A DNA stretch of 64,000 bases from a virus (Duplodnaviria > Caudoviricetes). Positions 3,431-43,565 of the stretch are shown one piece after another (the first letter of the stretch is position 1; the number at the start of each line of letters is the position of its first letter). The notes beneath the pieces were generated by a model that searched no databases, was not told the DNA's origin, and worked only from the letters and a program-made list of their open reading frames with translations. Where the stretch lies: the IMG/VR virus record IMGVR_UViG_3300031992_000011; one strand, 5' to 3'. The translations under genes and the position numbers were made by a program.

Positions 3431-3461
3431 TGCTGTTGTGTCTTCCGGTAAATATCCGGAA

Positions 3462-10209: not shown

Positions 10210-10800
10210 TCATTTATAGTTTTTAAGTTCTATTGTCGTGAGTGTGTTCACCATCTTCGTGAGGACACATAACGTCGAGGTCATGATGAGTTTGTTCTCC
10301 TCCATGTCGCGGTCTATCGAGGTCATTGCCTCAAATTCCTCCTCGGCGAGCACAATGCCATAGTTCTGGCACAAGTACAGGCTTCTTTCCCCGAGTTTCA
10401 TGCTGCCGGGAAGATCGTCGTTGAAATCATATATGTACCCCTTCTTGATTTTCCAGTCGTCCGTGCTCGGTATGAACATCACGGCCTTCGCCAAGTGCTG
10501 AAGAAGAAGGACGCGCATCAGCATCGAGAAGTTTACCGCGAGTCTAGGATGTCTCGGTTTGTCCTTGTCGGTGCCTGTCAGCGCCATCTCGTTTATGTCG
10601 TACGCGATTCGGCAAAGGCGGTTCAGCACGATGTCCACCATCCCTCCCTCGTATGCCCCACGCATAGGGTCGCTCAGCGCGTATGGGGCGCGCTTTATCT
10701 TCTCACCGATTTCGTCCATCATCCGCTGCGAGTAGCAGTTGTATTTCTCAAGGCGCTGTATGTACTTGAGGTAGTTTGCATTCAGTCTTGCTTCGTCCAT
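10210..10800 (-). CDS. HD-domain-like protein with degenerate metal ligands
   Basis: [11 protein letters not shown] ... LLQHLAKA ... GERSLYL...YGI.L..EE..A resembles YhaM/HD hydrolases but lacks the HD pair. Start moved to the ATG at 10800 because the promoter covers 10819-10850. Confidence 0.5.
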
Positions 10801-10818
10801 GTCTTTCGCATTTTTGCG

Positions 10819-10850
10819 CAAAGGTAATGTTTTGGGTTGAGATACACAAA
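10819..10850 (-). promoter_or_regulatory. Bacteroidota housekeeping-type promoter
   Basis: TTTG-N20-TACCTTTG. Confidence 0.75.
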
Positions 10851-11641: not shown

Positions 11642-12538
11642 TCACCGCTTGGGTATTTTCGACAGGTCTATCTTGCGCGGATTCTCGAGCTGCCTCAACA
11701 GTTCGTCCATCCCTCTCTCGGTGTCCGTGCGGTATGTGTCGGGTTCTTTCTCTTCTGTCTCCGGTTCTGTTTCCTCCGGTTTGACTTCTTGCTTCCCTGA
11801 AGGCTTGTTGAACTTTGACAGGTCTATCTTGCGCGGATTCTCGAGCTGCTTCATCAGTGAGTCCATCCCTCTCTCGGTGTCAGTGCGGTAAACATCGTCG
11901 TCCTTCTTCGTGTCATCCTTCTTGGTGTCGTCATTCTTCATTTGCGGACCGCTTGAAGGTTTCAGAGAAGGTACCGTCATCTTTATTCCGTTCTTGGTGT
12001 CTATGCTGACCGGATCCTGAAGTTGTTGTCTCACCCGTTCCATCCTCCGTTCGGTGTCGGTCTTGTAGATGTCAGAAGAAACCCTTGGCACTCCGTCGGT
12101 TGAAATCTTCCTGAGCGCGTCGTCCGTGATTTCACTGTCCGGACCTCCGAACTGCGCGACCTTGAATACAACCGCCATGGTGTTGTCGCCGTTAGGGTTG
12201 AATTCCCCGAGACCCTTGTATATGTCAGAGGCTGGTTGGGTAAATATCTGGTCTGTCGGGTCCCACTCGCTTATCCTGTCAAGAAGGAAAAATTTCCACG
12301 AGGGCACACGCGAAGTTGTGTCCCCGTATGGCTGGAACGCCCTTATGACCGGGTTTCCCGCACTTGTCGTCCCGTATGCATACACCTCGATTATCCTGTC
12401 ACCTGTCGCTATGTCCTCCCCCTTCGAGTGATAGTTTATCAGTATCCTCCTGTGGTTGTCCAAAGCGTCATCGATGTCCTGTTCGGACACGGACTCTTCA
12501 AGAAGCACGCTCTCGAGTAGAGAACTGAGGGATTTCAT
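11642..12538 (-). CDS. WYL-domain protein with C-terminal repeats and an N-terminal LxE leader
   Basis: ILINY...RIIEVYAYG...VIRAFQ...WKFFLLDRISEW is a WYL signature; three Y(R/K)TDTER...QL repeats. Confidence 0.65.
   Translation of the reverse strand: MKSLSSLLESVLLEESVSEQDIDDALDNHRRILINYHSKGEDIATGDRIIEVYAYGTTSAGNPVIRAFQPYGDTTSRVPSWKFFLLDRISEWDPTDQIFTQPASDIYKGLGEFNPNGDNTMAVVFKVAQFGGPDSEITDDALRKISTDGVPRVSSDIYKTDTERRMERVRQQLQDPVSIDTKNGIKMTVPSLKPSSGPQMKNDDTKKDDTKKDDDVYRTDTERGMDSLMKQLENPRKIDLSKFNKPSGKQEVKPEETEPETEEKEPDTYRTDTERGMDELLRQLENPRKIDLSKIPKR
11661..11890. repeat. 74-bp intragenic direct repeat (11661-11734 and 11817-11890), third degenerate copy near 12020-12068
   Basis: Direct comparison shows 5 mismatches; encodes YRTDTERGMDxLxxQLENPRKIDLS. 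Confidence 0.9.
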
Positions 12539-14094: not shown

Positions 14095-14424
14095 CTACTC
14101 GTCGTCGTAGCAGTCGACGCCGTTATCCCTCAATATCTCGCTCACAACAAACAACTGCCTGCGGTTGAGGACGTCGCTGTGCTGTATCATGTAGTTGTCG
14201 TCACGGAGTCTCATGTCTCCGCACGTGTATGATATGTAACGGCTGTCATCCTCGCTCGAAGTGTATGGAACATATATCGTGTCGCCCATAACCTCATATC
14301 TCCCTTTCCTGATGGAGTTGAAGAAAATCCTTATCTCATGCTGCCATTGCTTGTCGTCAGCCTCAGACAATATTCTTGTCATCACTTTCCGCGTGATGGA
14401 TTCCACCAATTCATTATTTCTCAT
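14095..14424 (-). CDS. Hypothetical protein with LxE leader
   Basis: Start at MRNNELVESITRKVMTRILSE; TATTTA at 14446-14451. Confidence 0.7.
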   Translation of the reverse strand: MRNNELVESITRKVMTRILSEADDKQWQHEIRIFFNSIRKGRYEVMGDTIYVPYTSSEDDSRYISYTCGDMRLRDDNYMIQHSDVLNRRQLFVVSEILRDNGVDCYDDE

Positions 14425-14435
14425 TTGTCGTTCGA

Positions 14436-14451
14436 TATTTACAGATAAATA
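14436..14451. promoter_or_regulatory. Palindromic bidirectional putative late promoter TATTTA-CAGA-TAAATA
   Basis: Perfect inverted pair between divergent genes starting at 14424 (-) and 14474 (+). Confidence 0.6.
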
Positions 14452-14473
14452 GCGTTTCAACACTGATTATGCA

Positions 14474-16336: not shown

Positions 16337-16374
16337 AAGCCACCAAACTATTTATATTGAAAACGAAAGTTACA

Positions 16375-18312
16375 ATGAACGGCATAACCTATTTTAGATT
16401 AGTTTCCCCGTACAGTAATGACATAACCAAGAACTGCGGACTCACCGGACAGGAGATTGACAACAATTTTTTCGTTCTTGAGGGCCGTGACGTCAAGTCT
16501 GTCACTCTTGACGGTGAGACACTCAAGGTGAACCTGTATAACGGTGATGTCATACCGGCCGACATGAGCGGACTGACCGGTTCCATCAAGGAGTCGATGT
16601 CCGACTTCGTCAAGTCGCTGTCGTTCGAGTTCGACCGCGACAACGGTGTCCTTAAAATCACACAGAACGGTGTCACGCAGACAATCGGCGGTTTTGTGAC
16701 CTCATATGAGGACAACAATGTCATTGCCACGGACGAGACACTGCAGGGCACAGGCAAGCCTGAGTCACCGCTCGGTGTTTCCAGAGCCTACAGAACAGGC
16801 GCATACGCACCCGTGAACATGATAATCGACAAGACGAACGGCCAGACCCTTCCGAGCGGCGAGAACCTGCACGCCGGCGACCGTTTCCTTGTGCACGACA
16901 AGGTGGGCGACTACGGGCTGCTTTACGATTATGAGGGCGTGAAACGCATCACGTGCGACCTTTTCATGAATTCTTCGAAATGGCGCGTCCCCACAAAGGA
17001 GGACTGGGACGACATGCTCAACGCCATCGAGCCGAACGCGGCGAACCGGGACCACGCGAATGCCACAAGCAACAGGTATCTCGGCAAATACGCCGGCGGA
17101 TATCTGAAGTCAAAGACCGGATGGATCGGCAGCGACGACGGGAACTCACCAGCTCCGGGCACCGGCGAGCCAACGGTCGACGACATGATAGGGAACACCA
17201 GTACACAAAGATGCTGCTGCGGCAAGAACGTGCCGTCATGCAGCCCGATGTACTGCGGGGAATACACCTCATGCTGCTGCAGACCGGACAGGAACCCTGA
17301 CGCGAGCGGCGCTGACATGTACGGATTCAACGCGAAACCGGCCGGATACGTCGACGACGGTGGTCTTGTCGGATATTTCGGCGAAAGGGCGTCGTTCTGG
17401 ACGGCGACACTGTCACCGAGCGGAAACAGCGCGTACATCAAGAGGCTTGAATGGGACAAGACAAACGTCTATCAGGACATCATCTCGACCAAGTACTCAC
17501 TTTCGCTCAGACTTATCAAAGACTACGACGGAAGTAATTTCTATGGACATGAACAGATACTCGGAGAAACATACGAGACAGTGCTCATGCCGTCGGTAAA
17601 GTCAGGCAGCAAGGTGTGGACTGCGGTAAATGTCGCGTTCAACAACGACTCTTATTGCGGCATAGAGCCGAACAACGGTCTTAACCTGACATACACTGAA
17701 AGATACTACATCGCTGAATGGGACGGCCACAAGTGGGTCACTGCCCCGTTTAACGAAGGCGACTCTGTGGTCGTGCTTGTGGCACCGGACGGTTCAAGGG
17801 CAGTGGACTACAGACTCGTTGACGGTTCTCTTGTCAGGGTCAGTGACATCATAGCCGAACAGGTCGTCGGGAAGGTTGACGAGGAACTTGACGAGATAAG
17901 GCAGTCGATCGCAGACGAGGCGTCGGCAAGGGAGGCGGCCGACAATGAGTTAAGAAATGCGATAGACGCCGAGATTGAGGCGAGAGGACAGGCTGACAGG
18001 GAACTTAACGAGAAAATCGACACGGAGATTTCCGCCCTTGACTCGAAGATTGCCCAGGAAAAGCAGGACCGCGAGGAGATGGACACGCTCCACGACGAGC
18101 AGATCAGCGACCTCGCCTCAAAGTTAGACCAAGAAAAACAGGAACGCGAGAACGCCGACAACGCGCTTGCGGGTGAGATTGACGGCATCGAGAAGAGACT
18201 TCTCGCAAGTGGGGAATTTGACGTCGACAGCGGCGTGCTCACACTGAAGTCGGAAGACGGTGAGTCCACGGTGATAAACGTCGGATTCGGTTTCAACTTC
18301 GGTGACGTATAA
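16375..18312 (+). CDS. Tail-fibre-like protein with a circularly permuted FISUMP (Fibrobacter succinogenes major paralogous) domain and coiled coil
   Basis: YGLLY, WRVPTKEDW, LKSKTGW, YGFNAKPAG, FWTAT and SLRLIKD; E..AR..AD heptad repeats at the C-terminus; TATTTA at 16349-16354. Confidence 0.7.
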   Translation: MNGITYFRLVSPYSNDITKNCGLTGQEIDNNFFVLEGRDVKSVTLDGETLKVNLYNGDVIPADMSGLTGSIKESMSDFVKSLSFEFDRDNGVLKITQNGVTQTIGGFVTSYEDNNVIATDETLQGTGKPESPLGVSRAYRTGAYAPVNMIIDKTNGQTLPSGENLHAGDRFLVHDKVGDYGLLYDYEGVKRITCDLFMNSSKWRVPTKEDWDDMLNAIEPNAANRDHANATSNRYLGKYAGGYLKSKTGWIGSDDGNSPAPGTGEPTVDDMIGNTSTQRCCCGKNVPSCSPMYCGEYTSCCCRPDRNPDASGADMYGFNAKPAGYVDDGGLVGYFGERASFWTATLSPSGNSAYIKRLEWDKTNVYQDIISTKYSLSLRLIKDYDGSNFYGHEQILGETYETVLMPSVKSGSKVWTAVNVAFNNDSYCGIEPNNGLNLTYTERYYIAEWDGHKWVTAPFNEGDSVVVLVAPDGSRAVDYRLVDGSLVRVSDIIAEQVVGKVDEELDEIRQSIADEASAREAADNELRNAIDAEIEARGQADRELNEKIDTEISALDSKIAQEKQDREEMDTLHDEQISDLASKLDQEKQERENADNALAGEIDGIEKRLLASGEFDVDSGVLTLKSEDGESTVINVGFGFNFGDV

Positions 18313-24233: not shown

Positions 24234-24317
24234 ATGCTCAAAAATTTTTACTGCAAAGATAAAGAAAATTATTGACACTGAAAAGTTAAATTATATTTAT
24301 ATGAAAATATCATCTAT

Positions 24318-24788
24318 ATGTACAAAAGAAGGAGTGTGACGTTAAGTGAAAGTCGTCTCAGACGTCTTATCTCAGAGGCGGTCAGAAAAGCACTGACGGA
24401 GAGTAATGAGGACACCAGATGGTACAACAATCAGGAGTCGGATCCCGGTGTCGGCAGTGAGTTGGATTTTTCTCCGCAGTTGTGGACAGAAATCAGATTC
24501 GTGCAGGGCGGAGATGATGACTACGAGGAAATTGACCGTATGTTCTGCGGCGACGATGATGTGTACTGTGAGGGCAACTCGCAGCCTGTGATAGAGTATT
24601 TGGCGCAGTGGGATGACGGCGAGGGAAACGTCGTCGAGGACGAGCCGAGGATAGCGAGGAACGACACCGTTTACGATGACGAGAACGGAGAATACATATT
24701 AAGGTACAACTCGTCGGTAGGTGGATGTTACCTGCTCTACAGGAAAGCGTCACCGCAAGAAGTTGACTGGTATCAGAACAATCGTTGA
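24318..24788 (+). CDS. Acidic hypothetical protein with LxE leader
   Basis: VTLSESRLRRLISEAVRKALTES; TATTTA at 24294-24299. Confidence 0.8.
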   Translation: MYKRRSVTLSESRLRRLISEAVRKALTESNEDTRWYNNQESDPGVGSELDFSPQLWTEIRFVQGGDDDYEEIDRMFCGDDDVYCEGNSQPVIEYLAQWDDGEGNVVEDEPRIARNDTVYDDENGEYILRYNSSVGGCYLLYRKASPQEVDWYQNNR

Positions 24789-24876: not shown

Positions 24877-25731
24877 TCAATAGTTGGTTACAAGCACCTC
24901 GTCAGCGCCTCCCCTGTCCTTCCTGTGGTAAGAGCTGTTGCTGTATGAGTTGTTCAGATGATGCACGTTGTATCTTTCGGACCACACGGAGAGTATCTCA
25001 TTGGTCTTCCCCTTGCTCTGCAGTGCGTTCGACAACGCGAACTTTATCCCTTTTTCGTCGAGACAGTCGAGCAGGGACAGAAGTTTTCTCTCGCACGTTT
25101 CGTTCCATCCGCCGTTCTCGTTGTATGTGGCGCATGTTATCAGATATGGCGGGTCGCAGTACACGAAATCATCGTTTCCGAGTTTGTCGAGTTTGAGCTC
25201 GCCGAAGTCCTTGCATGTGAACATAACGTCCATACTTGTTATTCTCTTGTGAAACTCCGTCAGGTTTTTTCTGATGGCGTCGTTGAACTTGCTCCGGTTC
25301 TTTCCGAACGGCATGTTGAATCCTCCGTCCTTGTTGAACCTTATCTGGTGGTTGAACGAGTAGCATATGAGCACAAACAGGTCTAACGGGTCTTTCTCCG
25401 TAGAGTTGTTGTAATCTGACCTGAATCTCAGGTATGCATCCGAGTCCGTCATGGTCAGGCCATATTCCTCTATTCTACTGTCCACGCGCCCTATCACCTC
25501 GTCAATGCTTAGTGACTTGAACTTGTTGTATATGCCGATAACGCCGTTATCAGCGTCGTTGGCTACAATTCTGTCCGCCGTGACGTTCACCGCCACATTC
25601 CCGCCTCCCGTGAAAAGGTCGACAAACATTCTCACCTTGTCCGGGAATAGCGGCAATATCTGCTTGAGCAGTTTATATTTCCCGCCGGTGTAGTTCATCG
25701 GCGATTTTACTAATTTTTCCGGTATTGTCAT
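24877..25731 (-). CDS. dam: Dam-family (D12 class) DNA adenine methyltransferase
   Basis: SPMNYTGGKYKL, FVDLFTGGG, RFNKDGGFNMPFG, YCDPPY and EVLVTNY. Confidence 0.92.
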   Translation of the reverse strand: MTIPEKLVKSPMNYTGGKYKLLKQILPLFPDKVRMFVDLFTGGGNVAVNVTADRIVANDADNGVIGIYNKFKSLSIDEVIGRVDSRIEEYGLTMTDSDAYLRFRSDYNNSTEKDPLDLFVLICYSFNHQIRFNKDGGFNMPFGKNRSKFNDAIRKNLTEFHKRITSMDVMFTCKDFGELKLDKLGNDDFVYCDPPYLITCATYNENGGWNETCERKLLSLLDCLDEKGIKFALSNALQSKGKTNEILSVWSERYNVHHLNNSYSNSSYHRKDRGGADEVLVTNY

Positions 25732-29129: not shown

Positions 29130-29216
29130 CACTTTCTGTCATTTTAATGTTTTTTAACTATCTCTGGCAAAAAATGAAGAATATCAATGATACGGTGCTT
29201 TGCCATATTTACAGGT

Positions 29217-31310
29217 ATGGTTATCATGTTGTCAGAAAACAGTTTTGACCGCAAGGTGAACAAATTCCTGAGCGGTTACACGGGCGGTGGGTTCTCGTCG
29301 GTGCGCGAGTTCCTGCTTAAGGGACTCTACGGGAAATTACCTGAGATGAGATGCATCAAAAATCCAGAGACAGTTTCTGACGTGGTCCGATGGTTTTTCA
29401 ACCCGGACGGAAGCGTGAAGAATGCCGAATATGTGAATGATTTCCGTGCGATACTCAAGTCGCTCATAGATAAAGACGGGGTTGACAAGATACAGAATTT
29501 CACGCACGGTTTTGAACTTCTGTCATTCATGAAAACTTTCGGACATCTGACACCGCGCGAAAAGAACCATATCCCGCGCAACTCGTCAAGAAAGTCAGTA
29601 AAGGCGGACAACGGTTACACTGTAACAAGGATAGATTCGTTCGATGAGATGACGCGTGCGCCGTTCGGCGACAGCTGGTGCATCGGTCAAGACCGCGAAT
29701 GGTGGGACGAATTCGCTGACGAGTCGGTTTCCACTGTATATATGGTGGTGAGGTCTGACGCAGCGCAAGCAAGGCCGTCCACAATGATGGATGACGACGA
29801 AGAGGTCACCGCAGACGAGTATTTCTCCGGAATTGACAGTTACACAGATTCGCTGCGTAGCGGAAAGTGGGGGTCTCTCGGTTCAGGAAGGTATCCGTAC
29901 GACAGTTACGGCATGTCCGCGATGGTTGTGATAAGTTACGAGAATGGTATGCATGAAGTGTGGTCGAGGTACAATATGAGTGGAAAGGACGGAGACTATC
30001 TGAGCAAGGGTCAGATGTCCAAACTACTCGGAGCACCATTCGAGACTCTTTTCCCGTACGTCAACTACACCATCAGCGAAAGTGCGCTGAACGAAAGCGA
30101 ATACGCCTACCATCTGACCGGCAGGGCGTCGGACGGGAGCAGAATCAACCATGACATGCGCCCTTACGGTAGCGAAGGCAGAGTGATGATGACGCAAGGC
30201 AGGGACACCGGCCATTTCGGGAGCGGGACTTACTTCTCCACATATACGTTCGGGGGATATGAAGGTCTGCCAAAATACGGAGAAGGAAACAACGATCCGC
30301 ATTTCATACAGATCAAGGACGGCGTGTACCGTGTCGACCTGGACTTGTACAAGAACCTGTACAGGGTAGAGAGCGAGGACGAGGGGGACATTCTGTTCTC
30401 GACACTCAAGTTGCTCAATGAATTCTTTAACCGCGTGACGGACGAGGATTTTGTCGGCAAAAAAGAACCTAACTACAACAACGCCGGTATATACCAGGTC
30501 GTCAGACGGAACTGTTCGGTGCTCGGACTGAAGTGCCCGTCATACTATGAACTGACAAGGATGGCGCAGTCGCACAAGGGTGTGCAGTCGTTCTCGACCC
30601 TTTTCATGGAATGGAACGGTTTTAATGGCGTTAACGTATGCGGACTGTACAGGTTTGACAACACGACGCATGGTTCTGTGATATATGACCTGTCGAAGAC
30701 GGGGTCGGCAATAGTGCCCGTCAAGAAGGCGAAATACTTTAGTCCTAAAGTGACATCACGGTACGGTTACGTCAACACTGACGGGAAATATGACGATGAT
30801 GAGATGCTTGCCCTCACATCCCCATATTACATTCCGGAAGAAGAAACTTTCAAGAAAATGCCTTTCAACAGACAGGTGAGAATATTGAAAAACATGATCA
30901 GTAACGGCAAGGTTGTCCGTTTTTGGACGTTTGAATCGTGCTTTTCTGACAAACTTAAGAAACTATATCTTCAGTTGGTGTTCAACAACCGCGACAAGTC
31001 GCGATACGGTGAAATGGTCGGAAGTGTCATGTTGGGAGGTGATGATAAGTACAGATGGCGTAAATATATCGTGGAGAATGGTCTGTACTATTGGGCCGGA
31101 TATTACAACAACCGAGTGTCAGGTCTTACAGCCATAATGTCCGAACTTGACGACTGGAACCTTGATGACGACGAGAACAAGAAACAGAACCTTGCCAACT
31201 TCAAGAACCTCATGCGCTATGTGAAACGTCCGTTGGAACTTGATGAACTCACAGCAATCCACGAATACACAGGCGTGTGGTTTGACTATGACGGCAATCC
31301 TGAAAAATGA
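29217..31310 (+). CDS. Bipartite late protein; second module ADP-ribosyltransferase-like (tentative)
   Basis: TATTTA at 29206-29211; internal ISESALNESE linker followed by AYH..., GHFGSGTYFST and GFNGVNV. Confidence 0.5.
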   Translation: MVIMLSENSFDRKVNKFLSGYTGGGFSSVREFLLKGLYGKLPEMRCIKNPETVSDVVRWFFNPDGSVKNAEYVNDFRAILKSLIDKDGVDKIQNFTHGFELLSFMKTFGHLTPREKNHIPRNSSRKSVKADNGYTVTRIDSFDEMTRAPFGDSWCIGQDREWWDEFADESVSTVYMVVRSDAAQARPSTMMDDDEEVTADEYFSGIDSYTDSLRSGKWGSLGSGRYPYDSYGMSAMVVISYENGMHEVWSRYNMSGKDGDYLSKGQMSKLLGAPFETLFPYVNYTISESALNESEYAYHLTGRASDGSRINHDMRPYGSEGRVMMTQGRDTGHFGSGTYFSTYTFGGYEGLPKYGEGNNDPHFIQIKDGVYRVDLDLYKNLYRVESEDEGDILFSTLKLLNEFFNRVTDEDFVGKKEPNYNNAGIYQVVRRNCSVLGLKCPSYYELTRMAQSHKGVQSFSTLFMEWNGFNGVNVCGLYRFDNTTHGSVIYDLSKTGSAIVPVKKAKYFSPKVTSRYGYVNTDGKYDDDEMLALTSPYYIPEEETFKKMPFNRQVRILKNMISNGKVVRFWTFESCFSDKLKKLYLQLVFNNRDKSRYGEMVGSVMLGGDDKYRWRKYIVENGLYYWAGYYNNRVSGLTAIMSELDDWNLDDDENKKQNLANFKNLMRYVKRPLELDELTAIHEYTGVWFDYDGNPEK

Positions 31311-31901: not shown

Positions 31902-32259
31902 CGTCGATCAGTAAATCCATCATGTGCTTCCTCGCCAGTAACTCGGACACCGTTTTCTCTGCCTCACCAAGGTTGCATTCAATGCATCCTTTGACATACG
32001 TCGCCGGTTCTTTCTCGTCACATGAGACGCTGTGGAAAGACCGTGGCAAGCGGATATTTGACTCTTTTGTGCCGGAAGGCAGAAATATGGTGCGGATTGA
32101 ACCGTTGTTTGTCATTTTCACGACAATAACAGACCCTATGCACCTGTCGCTTTCGGTGGCGGTAAGTATGTCAATCACCGTCCCGACACGGATGACTTCG
32201 TCATTGTAAAAATACAGTTTGTCACCCTTTTGACAATCATTCAGTCGCTTTGTCTCCAT
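31882..32259 (-). CDS. Hypothetical protein (125 aa)
   Basis: Overlaps both neighbours in the operon. Confidence 0.65.
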   Translation of the reverse strand: METKRLNDCQKGDKLYFYNDEVIRVGTVIDILTATESDRCIGSVIVVKMTNNGSIRTIFLPSGTKESNIRLPRSFHSVSCDEKEPATYVKGCIECNLGEAEKTVSELLARKHMMDLLIDGDEKTC

Positions 32260-33130
32260 CGTTTTTATTCTTTTGCTCCTCTTTTTTCTTTTTTTCCTTC
32301 GGTTTAGGCGGTTGCTTGATCATTGTCTTTCCGGACGTCCTGAAATTCTCAAGTCGCTTCTTCGAGAACTCAACCTGTGCCGCCGAAAGTTCGCATCCTA
32401 TGCAGGACATGTCAAAACCGCGCTCCGCGGCGAACTTCTCAACCGCTATCGCCGTGGTCCCTGTGCCCATGAACGGATCCATCACCTTGCATCCGTCCGT
32501 GGCGTATATCTCAAGCAACGCCTCGCACAGTGCTGTCGAATATGTCGCCTTGTTCAGGTCGCAAGCGCCGTCATTGTTCGGCGCCTCGATGAAATTGAAC
32601 ATGTTCTCGAAATACAACTGTCCTGTGTCCTCTCTCTTTGTCTTCACCTTTTTGTTGGCGCGATAGGTCATGAACTCGTCTTTTCGGCACAGCACGAAGA
32701 CAAACTCCGTGATGCGGGTCATTTTGTTCTTTGACACGTTGTTTGGGAGCGCTGACGATTTCTTCCACACGATACAGTCGCCCACCGTGAAGTTGGTCTG
32801 CTCTATTATGCTTCCCATTGCCAGCCACAATGTGTCAGGATTCTCGTTCCCGTAACTGATGTTATACAGCACTACACCGTCCTTCGCCAATATGCCGTCG
32901 AAGAGTTTGAACAGTTCAACCGTCCAGTCGCGGTATTCGTACTGGTTCATGTTGTCAAGGCAGATGTCATAGCGCCGGTTGTATGTGTCTATCGCCTTTT
33001 GTGTTTTCACTGTGCTGCGGCTTGTCGAATACGGAGGTGACGTCAGTATGATGTCGACCTTGTAGTCCGTGGCGGCCTGACGCTTCATCACGTCAATGCA
33101 GTCCTCGTTCTTGAAGTATATCTTTGCCAT
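32237..33130 (-). CDS. N4-cytosine/N6-adenine DNA methyltransferase (beta class)
   Basis: ILTSPPY precedes VMDPFMGTGTT; GCELS. Confidence 0.9.
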   Translation of the reverse strand: MAKIYFKNEDCIDVMKRQAATDYKVDIILTSPPYSTSRSTVKTQKAIDTYNRRYDICLDNMNQYEYRDWTVELFKLFDGILAKDGVVLYNISYGNENPDTLWLAMGSIIEQTNFTVGDCIVWKKSSALPNNVSKNKMTRITEFVFVLCRKDEFMTYRANKKVKTKREDTGQLYFENMFNFIEAPNNDGACDLNKATYSTALCEALLEIYATDGCKVMDPFMGTGTTAIAVEKFAAERGFDMSCIGCELSAAQVEFSKKRLENFRTSGKTMIKQPPKPKEKKKKEEQKNKNDGDKATE

Positions 33131-37990: not shown

Positions 37991-40005
37991 CACTTGTCCT
38001 TTTCAGCATTGATGACCGTGTCCATGATCAGTTCCTTACGCATCACCTTCTCGAACATGTCCTGCGAAACAGAGTCGGTGAACAGCTGATATATGCAGAG
38101 GGCATCCTTCTTCTGCGTTATGCGGTAGATTCGGTCCTGTGCCTGTTTGTTGTCAGCCGCCGACCAAGAGTACGAGTTGAAGATGAGATAACGCGCAGAG
38201 GTCAGCGTGAGGCCAAGCGACATGGCTGCCTCCTGACCAATGAACACCTTTGTCTTCTTGTCGGTCATAAAAGCGTTCTCCGCCTTGTCCTTCTGTTTCG
38301 GAGTCATCTTTCCGTCATAGGTCACGCACTTCTTGCCGAAGTGTTCCTTTAACTTCCTGATTTCTTCCGAAAAGTTGCACACGATGATGACTTTCTCCCC
38401 GTCTTCGAGAATGTCTTCTGCAAGTTCTATCGTGTGCGGCACCATTGCCTCGGCAAGATACTTCCGGACAAGTGTCCCCTCGATGAGTTGCTTGTACTCC
38501 TCGTTGCTCTCATCGCCGTTCTCCACCCTGGCGTTCACGTACTCGTCCCAAAGTCTGTCGTATTCCGACTTCTCTTCGGGGGTCAGGTCGTAATACCGTG
38601 AAGTTACGGTCTTGTTGACCATTCCCGGTATGTCGCGTGAGAGACGCCTGATGTAAAGATGCTTTATGGCTTCGCCGAGTTCCTCGAGATTTGACGACCC
38701 TTGCGGAATAGTCATTATCTTCGCGTTGTCCCGTATGAATGCCACGCAGTCACCTCTCATCGACCCGCTCATGGTGTCCCACGAGCAGTGGTTTTTCCTT
38801 TCGTAGACCGTGCGCCACTTCACCCAATCACCCGGTTTCATCATCTCCTTTCCGTCGCAGTAACGGTTCACATATCTCACATAATCCTGTGTCACCGGCG
38901 CATTGATGAGTCGCAGTATGTGATACAGGTTCATCGGCGTGTTTGTGAGCGGTGTACCTGACAAAAGGAACACATACTCGACACCGGTCTTTGAAAGAAA
39001 GTCGGAGATTACGGCGTAGCGTATTGACGTGTTGTTCGACAGTTTCTGTGCCTCGTCGATTATCACACAGTCGAATTTCGACTGGTAAAGCGGAGAGTTC
39101 GCCAACGCCTTCTGTATGGCGTCCTTTTTCCGTGTCTTGACCATCTTCGGTATCTCCTCGCCGGTCTTTTTGTCGACCTTAAATTCCGGTACCTTCAGTT
39201 TCTCGGTCTTACCGTCTTTCCCGACGATGATTTCTTCACGATACTTCTGCTCATAGGCCACCTCATAGTACCTCTGCACTATGTCGTAGTTTATGACGGT
39301 GAACAGTGATGTCTCTCCGTCCCATAACGACCCGCTTACGACCTTGCAGTCGGACTCGTCACTTGTGTAAAGCGCTATCTCGCGCCGCCATGTCGACTTA
39401 AGCGACGCTGTCGTTATCACAAGTATGCGTTTCGCTCCGCTCTCGAGCGCGGCGACAACGGCTTGACTTGTCTTTCCGAGTCCGGGTTCGTCAGCAAGGA
39501 TGCATCGCTTGTTCGTCAACAAGAACTTCACGCCGTCGCGCTGATGCTCCTTCAGTTTTCTCCCCGGTGTCATCGAGTCGTACTTGTCAAAGTCCACCTC
39601 CAACGACTTGTAGTCTGAATTGTCGTTCAGGTCGGTGAGAATGAACCTTTTGCCTATAAACATCAGTTGTGGCGGAACTGACTTGCGGTACTGAGCGTAG
39701 CAGTGATAACTTCCTCCCATCTCCCCGATGATGCTTGCGAGCCATAATTTTACCGGTGTAAAGTCGAGGTTGAATTTGCTGCGCATCTGCTCCCCGTAGT
39801 CGCCTGACAATCTCACAAGTTTATTGACATCGCGTCTACTGTAGTTCGCATTGCTGATGATGTACTCCGTGTTGAAATCACCTTCAGCGAGCAAGAGGCG
39901 ACCACTCTCATACATACGCTTGAAACGAAGAATATACTCGTTACTGCCTGTGTATGAGCGTAATATTGAATACGCTTTGGTTATGTCACTCTCTTTTTTC
40001 GCCAT
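37990..40005 (-). CDS. SNF2-family helicase/ATPase
   Basis: ILADEPGLGKT, IIDEAQ, LSGTPLTN, GLTLT and QAQDRIYRITQ. Start at MAKKES. Confidence 0.92.
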   Translation of the reverse strand: MAKKESDITKAYSILRSYTGSNEYILRFKRMYESGRLLLAEGDFNTEYIISNANYSRRDVNKLVRLSGDYGEQMRSKFNLDFTPVKLWLASIIGEMGGSYHCYAQYRKSVPPQLMFIGKRFILTDLNDNSDYKSLEVDFDKYDSMTPGRKLKEHQRDGVKFLLTNKRCILADEPGLGKTSQAVVAALESGAKRILVITTASLKSTWRREIALYTSDESDCKVVSGSLWDGETSLFTVINYDIVQRYYEVAYEQKYREEIIVGKDGKTEKLKVPEFKVDKKTGEEIPKMVKTRKKDAIQKALANSPLYQSKFDCVIIDEAQKLSNNTSIRYAVISDFLSKTGVEYVFLLSGTPLTNTPMNLYHILRLINAPVTQDYVRYVNRYCDGKEMMKPGDWVKWRTVYERKNHCSWDTMSGSMRGDCVAFIRDNAKIMTIPQGSSNLEELGEAIKHLYIRRLSRDIPGMVNKTVTSRYYDLTPEEKSEYDRLWDEYVNARVENGDESNEEYKQLIEGTLVRKYLAEAMVPHTIELAEDILEDGEKVIIVCNFSEEIRKLKEHFGKKCVTYDGKMTPKQKDKAENAFMTDKKTKVFIGQEAAMSLGLTLTSARYLIFNSYSWSAADNKQAQDRIYRITQKKDALCIYQLFTDSVSQDMFEKVMRKELIMDTVINAEKDK

Positions 40006-40025
40006 ATTGAAAACGGTTTCGACCG

Positions 40026-40057
40026 CAAAAGTAATACATACCGGCCAAATGTCCAAA
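40026..40057 (-). promoter_or_regulatory. Bacteroidota housekeeping-type promoter for the helicase operon
   Basis: TTTG-N20-TACTTTTG. Confidence 0.75.
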
Positions 40058-40120
40058 AAATCAAGTGCTTTCTTTAGATTTTTTAACTTTCTTGTTCCAA
40101 CGGAAGTATATTTACCTGTG

Positions 40121-41392
40121 ATGGAAAACAACGGAACATATGTGATATTCACGGCGCAGAACGTGGACGATCCGGCGGAACTCATGCGCCGCTATCCGAG
40201 CGCGCTGCCGAACAAATACTATCATCACTCGACGAACCGTTTCGGCAGGCAGCCTTTTGACGACCGCGAGGGAGAACCGATGCGGTTGCACATAACAGGG
40301 AGGCTCGTAACAGACAGAGTGGACGCTCTTGTCGTGGACAATCCTAACAGTGACAACGAAATACCGCACATAACGCTCGCAACCGCTGACGGAGTGAAAC
40401 CTTTCGCCAGCAACGCGGAACTCAAGGCGCACTATGCGGACATAGAACCGCTTGACGACTATGTGGACACAACATTCCGCAACAACATGTCGCGCAGCAG
40501 AAAAAATGAATCATTCCTTCGTCCGTCGATGCCGTTGAACGAGAAAAAGGGGGGTCACAACTACGCAGGACGCGACGACGAGTTCTACACGCGTCCGGAA
40601 GACATCGAACGGGAGTTGTCAAACTATGACCTCAGCGGAAAGGTCGTGTACTGCAACTGCGACGTCCCTTCAATGTCGGAATTTTACAAGTTCTTCAAGA
40701 ACAACTATGACTCCCTGAGATTAAGTGGACTTGTCGCCACCTACTACTCCGACACTCCATGTATGTACTGGTTCAACGGAGACTCTGAAAGGAAAATTCC
40801 GATAAAATCGGGACGCTTCCAAGACAATGAAAGGATTATGCGGATGTGTGACGTGGTGGTCACAAACCCGCCTTTCTCAGATTCAATGCCACATCAACTT
40901 GTGAATATGGCAAGGAAAATGGGTAAAGATGTAATCATTGTTGGGCCGTTGGACATGGCGCGGAGGAACGACATGTTCGAATTGGTAAAAAGCGGAAAAC
41001 TTAACTACGGACACAGTCCCATAAACAGATACAGAAGAGACGGAGAAAAATCACGGACAGCGCCGACCGCTTGGTGGACCACATTTCCGGTTGAACGCGG
41101 AAATTATTCCACAGGAAAGTCATACAATCCTTCAAGATACAGAAAATACGACAATTATGACGCTATCGAGTGTCCGCGTTACAGTGATTTACCTGACGAT
41201 TATGACGGAAAAATAGGGGTTCCTTGGAGGTTTCTCGGAAAACTTGACAGGCGCCAATATGATGTCGTAGACAAGATAAGGCCAAGACTTGACGGCAAGA
41301 ATCTGGATACAAGACTGATAATCCAACGGAAGAGCGTCACCGAAGCGCTTGTCAGAAGGATAACTGAAATGATAATGAGGAAACTTTTTTGA
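40121..41392 (+). CDS. Fusion of a 2H phosphoesterase-like domain and an EcoRI-family adenine methyltransferase
   Basis: N-terminal HHST...PHITLA, then DEFYT..DIE.EL, GKVVYCNCD, VVTNPPFS, KYDNYDAI and PDDYDGKIGVP; TATTTA at 40109-40114. Confidence 0.75.
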   Translation: MENNGTYVIFTAQNVDDPAELMRRYPSALPNKYYHHSTNRFGRQPFDDREGEPMRLHITGRLVTDRVDALVVDNPNSDNEIPHITLATADGVKPFASNAELKAHYADIEPLDDYVDTTFRNNMSRSRKNESFLRPSMPLNEKKGGHNYAGRDDEFYTRPEDIERELSNYDLSGKVVYCNCDVPSMSEFYKFFKNNYDSLRLSGLVATYYSDTPCMYWFNGDSERKIPIKSGRFQDNERIMRMCDVVVTNPPFSDSMPHQLVNMARKMGKDVIIVGPLDMARRNDMFELVKSGKLNYGHSPINRYRRDGEKSRTAPTAWWTTFPVERGNYSTGKSYNPSRYRKYDNYDAIECPRYSDLPDDYDGKIGVPWRFLGKLDRRQYDVVDKIRPRLDGKNLDTRLIIQRKSVTEALVRRITEMIMRKLF

Positions 41393-41395
41393 CAC

Positions 41396-41914
41396 ATGCC
41401 GGGCAACTTCAGGACACCTATCGAACGGAACAACTTGTTCTATTCGGACGAGGATTTCGATTTCGAGACCGACATATTGATGGACTACCTTGAGGAGGAC
41501 ACGAACCAGACCGTCGTCGTGTACGAGGTGGACGCTTCGACAACGACAGTCAACTCGACATACAAGGAGACGAACGGCGTTAGGTACAAGCCGCCGAAAG
41601 AGATTCCATGCCTGTTTGAAATCAAGGAATCCGAGATAAAGTCCTATGACAGCAAGAGCAGCAACGCGGTGTACTCAATCGGAGGGTCGCTGACCGTGTA
41701 TGTCATGCCGAAGGTGCTCGAGAAATACAAGTGCGACATCAAGAGGGGCGACTATATAGGGGTTCAGATAGACACCGACCGTATGGTGTACTATGCGGTC
41801 GTGAATGACGGAAAGGTTAACACGGCGAACTCGAACTACGTCGGCGCTTACAAGACCGCGTGGAGGATAGTGACCTGCAGCCCGGTGGACAATAATGAAT
41901 TCAACGGAAAGTGA
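41396..41914 (+). CDS. Neck/head-closure protein (gp14-like, tentative)
   Basis: Size and position before the tail-completion and sheath genes; VVVYEVD...YKE...PPKEIPC...DIKRGDYIG. Confidence 0.5.
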   Translation: MPGNFRTPIERNNLFYSDEDFDFETDILMDYLEEDTNQTVVVYEVDASTTTVNSTYKETNGVRYKPPKEIPCLFEIKESEIKSYDSKSSNAVYSIGGSLTVYVMPKVLEKYKCDIKRGDYIGVQIDTDRMVYYAVVNDGKVNTANSNYVGAYKTAWRIVTCSPVDNNEFNGK

Positions 41915-41916
41915 CG

Positions 41917-43038
41917 ATGGGAAGAAGACAGCCGAAACAGAGAATAACGACACCGAGGTACAAAGACCGCTCGGAAGGCGTGGAGCGGAGGATGTCATAC
42001 GCCAAGACCATACTTGACAAAGAGCCGGAGTTTCCGAAACCGCTCGAGTATGAGGACATAGACGCTGCATTCACCGAATTCGCCGAAAAAGTTGTGGACC
42101 TGACCGACCCGGACGGGAAAAAAGTCCCGACATTCACACTGTACAGCAACCAGAGGTTCAGCGAGTACTCGCAGACTTGGGAGCACACAGACCAAGACGG
42201 AAACCTTCTCATGAACTTCAAGACAGTCAACCGAATGGGCAATCCCGGACCCGGCAGGAACCAGGAGGGACACTGGAACATACCCGGAGACAGAAGGTAT
42301 ACCCTCCTCATGCGGAACGTGCTCAGTGACAACGGTACTGAACACGTCGAGGTGTACTCGATGAAGCAGCCTTACGCAGTTGACATGTCATACAGGATAA
42401 CGTTCGTCACAAACACCTATGAGATGCTTAACCGCTTCAATGAGAGGGTGAATGAGATGTTCAAGTCCAGACAGTGCTACATACGCCCGAACGGACATTT
42501 TGTGCCAATGGTTCTCGACGAAATGACTGACGAGACACAGTACACGGTCGAGGACAGGAAATTCTTCACACAGTCAGCCAACATCACAGTGATGGCATAT
42601 ATCATACACGCCAAGGACTTCGAGGTGAAGAAATACGCAAAACGAGTGAAGATGCACGACAGTGTGGAGAAAGGGAAAGTGGTCGTGGACATAGACGAAC
42701 CGCTGTCCGTTTCCGATTTCCAGCAGGTCGAGATGAACATATCATTCAGCGTAGGCGAGACAAACGTGACATTTGACATGTCAGGAGAACTCGCAGTCAC
42801 CGGCGGAAGGCGTGAGAATATACGGGACTTGAGAGTCTCCATCAACGGAACACCCATGTATGTCGACAAGGGTTTCCGCATGAACGACGGAGACACTGTG
42901 AGAATGCGAATCTTTCCGGTGGACTACACAAAACCGTCGAAAGTCACGCTCATTGGACACGACCCGACATCAATTCCGAATGAGGCGGAGGACGTTTCTG
43001 CCAGTGTTCCATTAGTGACAAGCGTCAATGTTGACTAA
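41917..43038 (+). CDS. Tail completion/terminator-like structural protein (tentative)
   Basis: Position between the neck and sheath genes. Confidence 0.45.
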   Translation: MGRRQPKQRITTPRYKDRSEGVERRMSYAKTILDKEPEFPKPLEYEDIDAAFTEFAEKVVDLTDPDGKKVPTFTLYSNQRFSEYSQTWEHTDQDGNLLMNFKTVNRMGNPGPGRNQEGHWNIPGDRRYTLLMRNVLSDNGTEHVEVYSMKQPYAVDMSYRITFVTNTYEMLNRFNERVNEMFKSRQCYIRPNGHFVPMVLDEMTDETQYTVEDRKFFTQSANITVMAYIIHAKDFEVKKYAKRVKMHDSVEKGKVVVDIDEPLSVSDFQQVEMNISFSVGETNVTFDMSGELAVTGGRRENIRDLRVSINGTPMYVDKGFRMNDGDTVRMRIFPVDYTKPSKVTLIGHDPTSIPNEAEDVSASVPLVTSVNVD

Positions 43039-43220: not shown

Positions 43221-43565
43221 ATGAAAAGTGTGACCATGACGCTGATGGAACTTATGAAGGTTTCTGATGCGATGACCGAACTCATAGAGTGCGAGGAGAA
43301 ATTCCCGATAGGGGTCGCTTATCGACTTGCGCGCATAAACTCAATCGTCAAGGAAGCGGAGTCGTTCACCATGGACCGGTTCGGAAAAGTTGTCGACCTG
43401 AACAAGGAGAATCTCACCGACGACGAACGTGACATCGTTGACGCTCTTATGGCAACGCAAATACGCATAGACGTTCCTGACATCACAGAGTCCGAGATTC
43501 TGTCCGGCGAAGGTGTAAATATCAGCATAGGCGATATCGCGAGCCTTTTGCCGCTCATGTCGTGA
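43221..43565 (+). CDS. Hypothetical protein (114 aa)
   Basis: ORF upstream of the sheath gene. Confidence 0.7.
   Translation: MKSVTMTLMELMKVSDAMTELIECEEKFPIGVAYRLARINSIVKEAESFTMDRFGKVVDLNKENLTDDERDIVDALMATQIRIDVPDITESEILSGEGVNISIGDIASLLPLMS

Follow-up and report, generated by a model that had tools for sequence, protein, structure and literature searches.

Several kinds of phage protein bear comparison with the one described here. The polyvalent proteins were defined as a class by Iyer, Burroughs, Anand, de Souza and Aravind (2017, J Bacteriol; PMC5512222), who predicted that they are packaged and co-injected. Adenine methylases are hub domains of this class; they are EcoKI/TaqI-like and are paired with SNF2 helicases, as in DarB of phage P1, a methyltransferase-helicase packaged in the head, by which incoming DNA is protected against type I restriction (PMC5512222). 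Domains of the 2H phosphoesterase kind are listed in polyvalent proteins, too, as well as solo in phages; in the former they never accompany RNA ligases, and either a role as RNase or the degradation of signalling nucleotides has been proposed for them. Methyltransferase modules of the EcoRI type are not mentioned (PMC5512222). Phage heads also contain processed proteins of other kinds: the prohead proteases of T4, phiKZ and SPN3US cut after Glu, and T4 Alt is trimmed at both ends by one of them, gp21 (PMC5694885). The gene considered here lies at 40121-41392 (+ strand) of a 64,000-nucleotide stretch of virus DNA—'the window' in what follows—from IMG/VR record IMGVR_UViG_3300031992_000011 (Duplodnaviria; Caudoviricetes). 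It joins a very small 2H domain to an EcoRI-type adenine methyltransferase in a single protein of 423 amino acids, P0001.

P0001 is read from an uninterrupted frame, and its full-length model (predicted local distance difference test, pLDDT, 90) consists of two independently folded domains, each above 90. Between them, residues 129-147 fall below 50, that is, they are disordered; a helix spans 406-422 at the C-terminus. A sequence-only reading of the gene had proposed a 2H phosphoesterase fused to an EcoRI-type methyltransferase, and every motif it named is in place: HHST (the conserved triplet is H36-S-T38) and PHITLA (H83-I-T85) in the first domain, LNE at residues 139-141 in the linker, and DEFYT (153-157), YCNCD (177-181), NPPF (249-252) and KYDNYDAI (342-349) in the second. 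It had also described a 'terminal signal-like helix'; the helix exists, but its likeness is to the leader helices found at module boundaries in this family, and the signal-peptide interpretation was rejected. The gene is laid out as follows.

40121-41392, + strand: coding sequence of the two-domain protein, stop codon included (open frame; orthologues P0002, P0003 and P0004 have the same architecture).
40136-40495, + strand: minimal 2H phosphoesterase domain, residues 6-125 (AlphaFold2, VIA-align, Foldseek; Pfam tRNA_lig_CPD in homologues).
40226-40234, + strand: first predicted catalytic HxT motif, H36-S-T38 (H36 and T38 invariant in alignment A1).
40367-40375, + strand: second predicted catalytic HxT motif, H83-I-T85 (H83 and T85 invariant in alignment A1).
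40496-40567, + strand: inter-domain linker, residues 126-149, a degenerate leader helix (low pLDDT; helix intact in orthologues).
40535-40543, + strand: L-N-E, residues 139-141, candidate protease site directly before K-K-G-G (sequence comparison; cleavage is predicted).
40568-41335, + strand: EcoRI-family N6-adenine methyltransferase domain, residues ~150-405 (Pfam PF13651, invariant residues, Rossmann fold).
41336-41389, + strand: C-terminal amphipathic helix, residues 406-423, leader-like, with I-T-E at 414-416 (model and pattern match).

Judged by its predicted structure, the N-terminal domain is a minimal 2H phosphoesterase of the CNPase / Trl1-CPD branch, with both HxT motifs intact. An exhaustive, profile-free search with residues 1-130 of P0001 gave 227 cluster representatives, and both motifs are kept in 138 of the best 150 of these. 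When 48 homologues, most of them stand-alone proteins, are aligned (A1), the sole invariant columns are H36, T38, H83 and T85, so the pair of motifs in P0001 is not there by chance. The AlphaFold2 model built on this alignment has pLDDT 95 and a predicted template-modelling score of 0.87, and its top Foldseek matches in the PDB are all 2H proteins. When compared with 48,161 representative chains by VIA-align, the domain matches the catalytic domain of mouse CNPase best (2xmi_A; Z 12.0, root-mean-square deviation 2.6 Å, 123 of 130 residues). Acb1 comes second (7t27; Z 6.2, 4.1 Å, 104 residues), followed by plant CPDase, a phage phosphodiesterase, LigT, Usb1 and viral 2'-5' phosphodiesterases. 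The 2H fold that the sequence-only reading had assigned to this half from its motifs is thus borne out by structure prediction.

The sole sequence-family signal of this domain is Pfam tRNA_lig_CPD (PF08302), which 30 of the 48 homologues match at E <= 0.01 (best, 2.6e-8). Whole P0001 matches it below threshold (residues 54-102, 20.0 bits against a cut-off of 23), and the isolated 130-residue domain matches it exactly at the cut-off (23.0 bits), with only the second half of the profile aligning. P0001 as a query found no sequence matches in the PDB and no NCBIfam family. The 2H profile, run against PDB sequences, matched CNPase around the second HxT motif only, with non-significant E-values, at chain positions 150-170, which we take to be the region of H309.

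Of the chemistries open to a domain with this predicted fold, the likeliest is the opening of a 2',3'-cyclic phosphodiester by hydrolysis. Candidate substrates are RNA ends produced by metal-independent RNases of the host, and small signals made of cyclic phosphates or oligonucleotides. Among the possibilities, 2',3'-cyclic phosphate chemistry stops only just short of probable; cyclic-oligonucleotide or 2'-5' signals seem unlikely, and something else, including the NAD-derived cyclic phosphates suggested by the company this module keeps with ART-PolyVal domains (below), rather unlikely. A more specific proposal is that the domain is a nuclease of the Acb1 type, cleaving the 3'-5' bonds of cyclic di- and trinucleotides, in which case the gene would pair a defence against cyclic-oligonucleotide-based antiphage signalling (anti-CBASS) with a defence against restriction. 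Acb1 is, after all, the second-best representative structure, several Acb1 proteins appear among the Foldseek matches to viral models, and degradation of signalling nucleotides has been proposed for polyvalent 2H domains (PMC5512222). The weak structural match may be compatible with a similar substrate. CNPase, however, fits far better, in Z-score and deviation alike, and this difference leaves an Acb1-like substrate not favoured over 2',3'-cyclic phosphates. The one sequence-family signal is the Trl1 CPD domain, instead; scans of P0001 against Pfam, PHROGs and NCBIfam returned no Acb1 family; the best viral structural matches, ahead of Acb1, are Trl1-like RNA ligases of giant viruses; and the pairing with ART-PolyVal in giant proteins hints at RNA or NAD-derived substrates. 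We regard the Acb1 proposal as improbable.

The C-terminal domain is identified more directly. Pfam PF13651 (EcoRI_methylase) matches P0001 with E 2.4e-44 (152.5 bits against a cut-off of 26.4), in agreement with the earlier call of an EcoRI-family adenine methyltransferase, and DEFYT, YCNCD, SGRFQDN and the catalytic NPPF (249-252) coincide with invariant columns of alignment A3. The fold is that of a Rossmann methyltransferase whose structural neighbours are adenine-N6 enzymes acting either on DNA (M.TaqI, Z 9.9, and type I M subunits) or on rRNA (DIMT1, Z 10.8; KsgA, 10.4; Erm, 10.4). From such scores one might suppose that both domains act on RNA, the second as an m6A RNA methyltransferase and the first as an RNA-end-processing 2H enzyme; the rRNA enzymes score much as M.TaqI does, and the CNPase / Trl1-CPD branch acts on 2',3'-cyclic phosphates of RNA or nucleotides. 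But a generic Rossmann fold cannot separate DNA from RNA targets, and PF13651, which was built on M.EcoRI, matches unambiguously. Phage relatives are annotated as DNA methyltransferases. The strength of the Pfam match, together with the retained family-invariant residues, leads us to predict methylation of DNA rather than RNA, and the RNA alternative strikes us as very improbable. On sequence grounds, then, the second module is an orphan N6-adenine DNA methyltransferase of the EcoRI family, whose role would be to shield the DNA of the phage against restriction.

A search for the same architecture elsewhere, which the sequence-only reading had called for, found it in P0002 (99% identity, on a 118.9-kb contig), in P0003 (64%) and in a fragment, P0004. 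Elsewhere it appears to be absent: the best 150 of the 227 2H-module representatives are all without EcoRI-methylase motifs, the two modules were found together in no protein of 742-2,115 amino acids, and cultured phages searched by tblastn with P0001 matched its methyltransferase half only, in 12 records. The fusion is genuine but rare, being seen only in P0001 and its orthologues P0002, P0003 and P0004. That it is instead an artefact of assembly or frameshifting, or a decaying pseudogene made of two adjacent genes, is scarcely credible. The helix at the junction of P0001 is degenerate, it is true, and a variant that has lost the methyltransferase exists. But the frame is open throughout in the window, the architecture recurs at 99% and at 64% identity in independent assemblies, the catalytic and family-invariant residues of both domains are all retained, and both domains are modelled with pLDDT >90.

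The variant just mentioned, P0141 (118 amino acids), consists of the 2H module and an intact leader, then K-R-G-G-H-N, and directly after these the C-terminal tail. Missing from between the two flanking helices is the methyltransferase core, excised in a way that points to gain and loss of cassettes by recombination at the leaders.

Both halves of P0001 belong, by sequence, to the known network of polyvalent proteins, in which they are portable modules. Among the best 150 of the 227 representatives, the 2H module stands alone in 53 proteins (<=170 amino acids) and lies within 31 proteins of >=1,500 amino acids, the longest of them 7,041; the remainder include proteins of middling size. At 60-74% identity, it occurs inside proteins of 1,848-7,041 amino acids together with ART-PolyVal or LPD23, and phage contigs in IMG/VR have it inside open reading frames (ORFs) of 2,000-3,900 amino acids. 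Several of the giant proteins that contain it carry ART-PolyVal, LPD23 or NADAR, and the order FKxWFGxW junction, 2H, start of ART-PolyVal is found in at least 13 representatives. This conserved dyad hints that the two enzymes share a substrate. The methyltransferase module, for its part, follows ART-PolyVal in P0012, a HEMGH metallopeptidase-like module in P0006, P0008 and P0017, and a module of no known family in P0020; in P0007 and P0020 it precedes further modules. Measured against the polyvalent class, P0001 has the two or more conflict-related domains expected, a 2H domain and an adenine methyltransferase, and it comes from a phage whose sheath is T4-like; its modules are ones that are shuffled with those of large polyvalent proteins (2H; the methyltransferase in P0012). 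Its gene follows a TATTTA motif and precedes neck-like and sheath genes, which may reflect a linkage to late or packaging genes. The concept of 2H and methylase domains in virion-delivered phage proteins was already known (PMC5512222). New are the pairing of these two domains, the smallness of the 2H core, a methyltransferase module of the EcoRI type, and the organization into cassettes delimited by leaders.

Two further observations concern this network. In the giant proteins P0126, P0128, P0130, P0132, P0133, P0137 and P0145, and at loci L002 and L005, a FKxWFGDW junction nearly always precedes the 2H module; ART-PolyVal comes directly after 2H in giant phage proteins and before it in L005, which has NADAR as well. 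In the window itself, ORF 29187-31310 (+ strand; 707 amino acids), which has no match in Pfam or PHROGs, contains G-x-F-G-x-G-x-Y-F-x-T at residues 339-352, a stretch in which 9 of 14 residues are identical to the ART-PolyVal region of P0093 (E 0.015). From this likeness, the ORF may encode a diverged ADP-ribosyltransferase of the polyvalent type.

The leaders come to light when the sequence preceding the methyltransferase core is aligned; three kinds of N-terminus can then be told apart: cellular-type, short-leader and long-leader. Cellular-type homologues have a short basic stretch directly before DEFYT; the methyltransferase gene of Campylobacter phage PC5 is of this kind, and is split. A sister clade of proteins of ~270 amino acids (alignment A3) has a 10-residue leader, M-K-x-L-x-x-[YF]-I-x-E, in which M1 and E10 are invariant and I8 nearly so. 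One example reads MKNLQEFIFE; the capsid-targeting sequence (CTS) of T4, which gp21 removes, reads MKTYQEFIAE (PMC8442874; PMC10229621). The clade of P0001 has a longer amphipathic helix, ending in [LIV]-x-E and followed by (D/E/K)-K-(I/V)-G-G before the methyltransferase. This long leader stands first in the solo forms (P0005, P0010, P0013, P0016 and P0027) and lies between modules in fusions; at the junction between 2H and methyltransferase it is intact in the orthologues P0003 and P0004. In P0122, the closest relative of the 2H half (72% identity), a leader is followed by the 2H domain, and the predicted cut site (…L-E/N-D-G-T, the slash marking the cut) aligns with the start of P0001 itself (M-E-N-N-G-T). 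The leader pattern recurs in the C-terminal helix of P0001 and in the tails of P0003, P0012, P0018 and P0021, and in P0020 and P0007 the corresponding position after the methyltransferase is occupied by a full leader and then another module.

The same helix turns up in the window on a body unrelated to either domain:

24292-24788, + strand: TATATTTA (24292-24299) followed by a 156-amino-acid ORF, 24318-24788, with a full leader helix on an unrelated body (BLASTP, motif).

This helix occupies residues ~7-28 and ends in L-T-E. BLASTP aligns residues 10-28 of the ORF with the junction of P0003 (130-148; 12 of 19 residues identical, E 4e-4); outside this stretch the two proteins show no similarity. 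The ORF has no Pfam or NCBIfam family. Its exact sequence was also found on a contig of 330,287 base pairs (P0268), and from this we take the phage to be a jumbo phage.

Searches for more leaders were of mixed value. Strict regular expressions missed known cases, and a short hidden Markov model of the leader, run on the six frames of the window, was too noisy; a looser expression gave 5 matches in the window against 1.8 in shuffled sequence, and 2 of the 5 were in non-coding frames. When the leader of ORF 24318 was used in a word search, only that ORF was recovered. In searches aimed at genomic context, single-protein scans of viral contigs found nothing, and scans of IMG/VR and metagenomes with the alignment of short-leader methyltransferases returned almost only cellular-type N-termini. 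Leader-like motifs are not characteristic of giant polyvalent proteins.

Some further leader-like sequences are recorded here in their own right. L179 (JAFLUY010000020.1), from an Erysipelotrichales metagenome-assembled genome (MAG) bin, encodes a solo EcoRI-type methyltransferase (627-1445, + strand) and an unrelated 151-amino-acid ORF (10388-10843, - strand) that have in common a 10-residue leader, M-K-S-L-x-x-[FY]-I-x-E. L179 also encodes a Ro60-like RNA-binding protein (phrog_850) and, with its PHROG matches, is phage-like DNA in a bacterial MAG bin. In the window, ORF 14095-14463 (- strand) has a weaker copy of the helix, ending in I-L-S-E; ORF 11642-12538 (- strand) starts M-K-S-L…L-L-E, like the T4-CTS-like leaders of the sister clade; and ORF 43221-43565 (+ strand), just upstream of the sheath gene, starts M-K-S-V…L-M-E. 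None of these three has a Pfam family.

If leaders are removed by a protease that cuts after [LI]-x-Glu, the cargo behind them might be expected to lack such tripeptides, and that is the pattern seen in P0001 and the long-leader clade. P0001 has only two, and both lie outside its folded domains: L-N-E belongs to the linker, I-T-E to the C-terminal helix. Counted over related sequences, the 250-residue methyltransferase cores of 22 members of the long-leader clade (examined: P0001, P0003-P0022, P0027 and P0059) contain 3 where shuffling predicts 24.9, a ratio of 0.12, or ~8-fold depletion; for cellular-type homologues the ratio is 0.73. A cargo with few internal sites is what would survive processing in the prohead, and both the domains of P0001 and the clade to which its methyltransferase belongs are of this kind.

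The surroundings of the gene bear on when it is expressed.

40006-40120, between divergent genes: intergenic region separating the SNF2 helicase operon (- strand) from the 2H-methyltransferase gene, with a promoter-like site on the minus strand.
40107-40114, + strand: TATATTTA, a recurrent TATTTA promoter-like motif 7 nucleotides before the ATG (the same 8-mer stands before ORF 24318).
41396-43038, + strand: two tightly linked downstream genes, 41396-41914 and 41911-43038 (3-nucleotide gap after the stop codon, 4-nucleotide overlap).

The TATTTA that had been noticed upstream of the gene is at 40109-40114. The hexamer occurs 24 times in the window, and 12 of these copies lie within 45 nucleotides upstream of gene starts on the same strand, against ~0.4 expected from position alone. 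The genes behind it include that for the tail sheath and several for large proteins of no known family. On the minus strand of the divergent region, TACTTTTG, preceded by TTTG, lies ~21 nucleotides before the helicase ATG at 40005, and we take the two together to fit the Bacteroidota promoter form, TTTG...TAnnTTTG. With the P0001 gene begins a + strand block extending to the end of the window; it includes, further along, a T4 gp18-like sheath and a baseplate hub. The sequence-only reading had it heading a neck operon. It does head the block, and the two genes that follow are probably co-transcribed with one another; their identity as neck genes comes from ESM Atlas leads only, with scores of 0.95-0.97 to clusters partly annotated T4_neck-protein or Phage_H_T_join_2, and a lead to a T4-gp15 cluster (score 0.84, template-modelling score 0.63). 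Neither gene has a match in Pfam or PHROGs. The same reading had placed three other methyltransferases in early operons. Two were found, both on the minus strand beside replication genes: one of the Dam-like D12 class at 24877-25731 (E 5e-39), next to the DNA polymerase, and one of the N6_N4 class at 32237-33130 (E 3e-25). The third was not located. With that of P0001, this brings the adenine or N4 methyltransferases in these 64 kb to at least three.

Examples of TATTTA are found at 16349, 21452, 24294, 40109, 43576, 48440 and 50717 (+ strand) and at 3449, 12944 and 47823 (- strand), 7-44 nucleotides upstream of gene starts. Some copies are only 7-12 nucleotides from the start codon, and the mRNAs would be nearly leaderless. 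One of the motifs precedes a gene (16357-18312, + strand) for a 651-amino-acid protein with a Fib_succ_major domain (E 6.5e-11). Such domains are typical of surface proteins of Fibrobacter and Bacteroidota, which is a hint of the host, and this one may belong to a receptor-binding or tail-fibre protein.

What might such a protein do? The account to which we incline, tentatively and as something less than probable, is that P0001 is a virion-borne, two-module counter-defence protein, a small member of the polyvalent network. The sequence-only reading had already suggested a two-in-one counter-defence protein, possibly packaged, split at LNE and injected. The gene would be transcribed late, together with those for neck and tail, from a TATTTA-type promoter. 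The leader-like amphipathic helices on either side of the methyltransferase would carry the protein into the prohead, where a protease of the T4 type, cutting after Glu, would trim or split it at L-N-E (139-141) and possibly at I-T-E (414-416). Both enzymes would then enter the next host with the DNA, ahead of any phage gene expression. Packaging and cleavage at L-N-E are made plausible by the leader in the orthologues and in ORF 24318, by the T4-CTS-like leaders of the sister clade, by the depletion of [LI]xE, and by the position of L-N-E in a disordered linker. Taken separately, packaging is quite possible if not quite probable, and cleavage of P0001 at L-N-E is possible but open to real doubt.

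A broader version of this account is conceivable, though on balance doubtful: an amphipathic leader that is portable and akin in form to the T4 CTS would load interchangeable cassettes—methyltransferases, 2H phosphoesterases, ADP-ribosyltransferases, peptidases—into the capsids of giant gut and rumen phages. In fused cassettes the internal leader would be a joint to be cut by the protease, and P0001 would be a two-cargo polyprotein, bringing in a methyltransferase against restriction and an enzyme that degrades cyclic phosphates or signals before phage transcription starts. The junction of P0001, on this reading, looks like the remnant of a capsid-loading tag.

A number of observations weigh against a place for P0001 in the virion. 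Its own junction helix, though it has kept L-N-E, is shortened by ~6-7 residues and contains two prolines, and may no longer work as a targeting helix. Nor does P0001 begin with a leader ending in [LI]-x-E, as cargo bearing a T4-like CTS does; its relatives P0122, P0005 and P0013 and the A3 clade have theirs at the N-terminus. The role of the leader in capsid targeting would be ascribed to it purely by analogy with T4. The short-leader clade, the one whose leaders are CTS-like, is not depleted in [LI]xE (ratio 0.89), and the 2H modules are depleted only mildly (0.72). General scans of the proteins of the 64-kb window recognized no prohead protease, portal or capsid gene. Late expression of the gene is a reasonable inference from the kinds of gene that TATTTA precedes. 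As with the polyvalent 2H domains of Iyer et al. (PMC5512222), no RNA ligase partner was found: scans of the window proteins recognized neither an RNA ligase nor a kinase.

Many of these points would be accommodated if P0001 were a late bifunctional enzyme of the cytoplasm, never packaged, and the helices flanking its methyltransferase were linkers or docking elements. The methyltransferase could then simply methylate progeny DNA before packaging, while the 2H domain would degrade defence signals, or repair RNA damage, triggered by late structural proteins in the producing cell. The identities of the two domains are equally compatible with this, and the degenerate junction helix, the lack of depletion in the short-leader clade and the failure of the window scans to recognize head genes or a protease speak for it. 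It is common for orphan methyltransferases to be expressed late and to do their work before packaging, and late proteins are sensed by many defence systems. It is harder to see, however, why linkers or docking elements should be common to unrelated ORFs and fall exactly at module boundaries, why they should resemble the T4 CTS, or why the long-leader clade should be so depleted in [LI]xE. At least two other methyltransferases are already present beside replication genes, and both modules come from a class predicted to travel with the DNA (PMC5512222). We consider the cytoplasmic explanation a serious one, although on balance doubtful.

Should the inferred steps of the virion-borne account prove true, P0001 would be a compact example of phages pre-loading counter-defence enzymes. 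An orphan methyltransferase that depends on phage gene expression comes too late to counter restriction of the incoming genome, whereas a virion-borne one, such as P1 DarB, does not; and the 2H partner would neutralize a second class of defence—RNA-cutting toxins or nucleotide second messengers—simultaneously. The polyvalent catalogue gains a methyltransferase module of the EcoRI type and a 2H core that, at ~118 amino acids, is unusually small. Virion cargo in uncultured jumbo phages might be predicted by a signature in which a leader helix with hydrophobic-x-Glu at its end goes together with scarcity of [LI]xE in the cargo.

Among known systems, Acb1 (phage FBB1; 7t27) is, like the first half of P0001, a small phage 2H enzyme of the same fold with a counter-defence role. 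Acb1 is a stand-alone early protein; its structural match to the P0001 domain is much weaker than that of CNPase, and no sequence-family signal links the two. With CNPase and the Trl1 CPD domain, P0001 shares the fold, the two HxT motifs, a borderline tRNA_lig_CPD family signal and, by implication from the model, the conversion of 2',3'-cyclic phosphate to 2'-phosphate. It differs from CNPase in size (~118 against ~215 amino acids), much of the periphery being missing, and is only 16% identical to it; and unlike CNPase and Trl1, it has no kinase or ligase partner, and its setting is phage counter-defence, instead.

P1 DarB offers the precedent for a virion-borne adenine methyltransferase that acts in cis on injected DNA (PMC5512222), and here, too, an SNF2 helicase is close at hand, its gene divergently adjoining that of P0001. 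In DarB, however, the methylase is EcoKI/TaqI-like and is fused to the helicase, whereas here the helicase is separate, on the other strand, and behind a different, host-type promoter. At 2,255 amino acids, DarB is also a long protein. The resemblance to the internal proteins of T4, and to Alt, lies in unrelated cargo sharing a short leader that ends in [LI]-x-E, Alt being processed at both ends (PMC5694885), and in the phage itself, which has a T4-like sheath and, going by leads, neck genes like those of T4. The leader of P0001 differs in being internal and degenerate rather than N-terminal, and that of its clade in being a longer helix (~18-20 residues). We know of no methyltransferase or 2H enzyme among the CTS cargo of T4.

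The closest kinship is with the polyvalent proteins of Iyer et al., in which several conflict-related enzymatic domains likewise share one polypeptide and among whose giants the very same 2H module is found. P0001 is a reduced version, with two modules in 423 amino acids, and its methyltransferase is of the EcoRI type where theirs are EcoKI/TaqI-like and associated with SNF2 helicases. The boundaries between modules differ as well: in the giants they are junctions of the FKxWFGDW type, and in the clade of P0001 they are leader helices ending in hydrophobic-x-Glu, instead.

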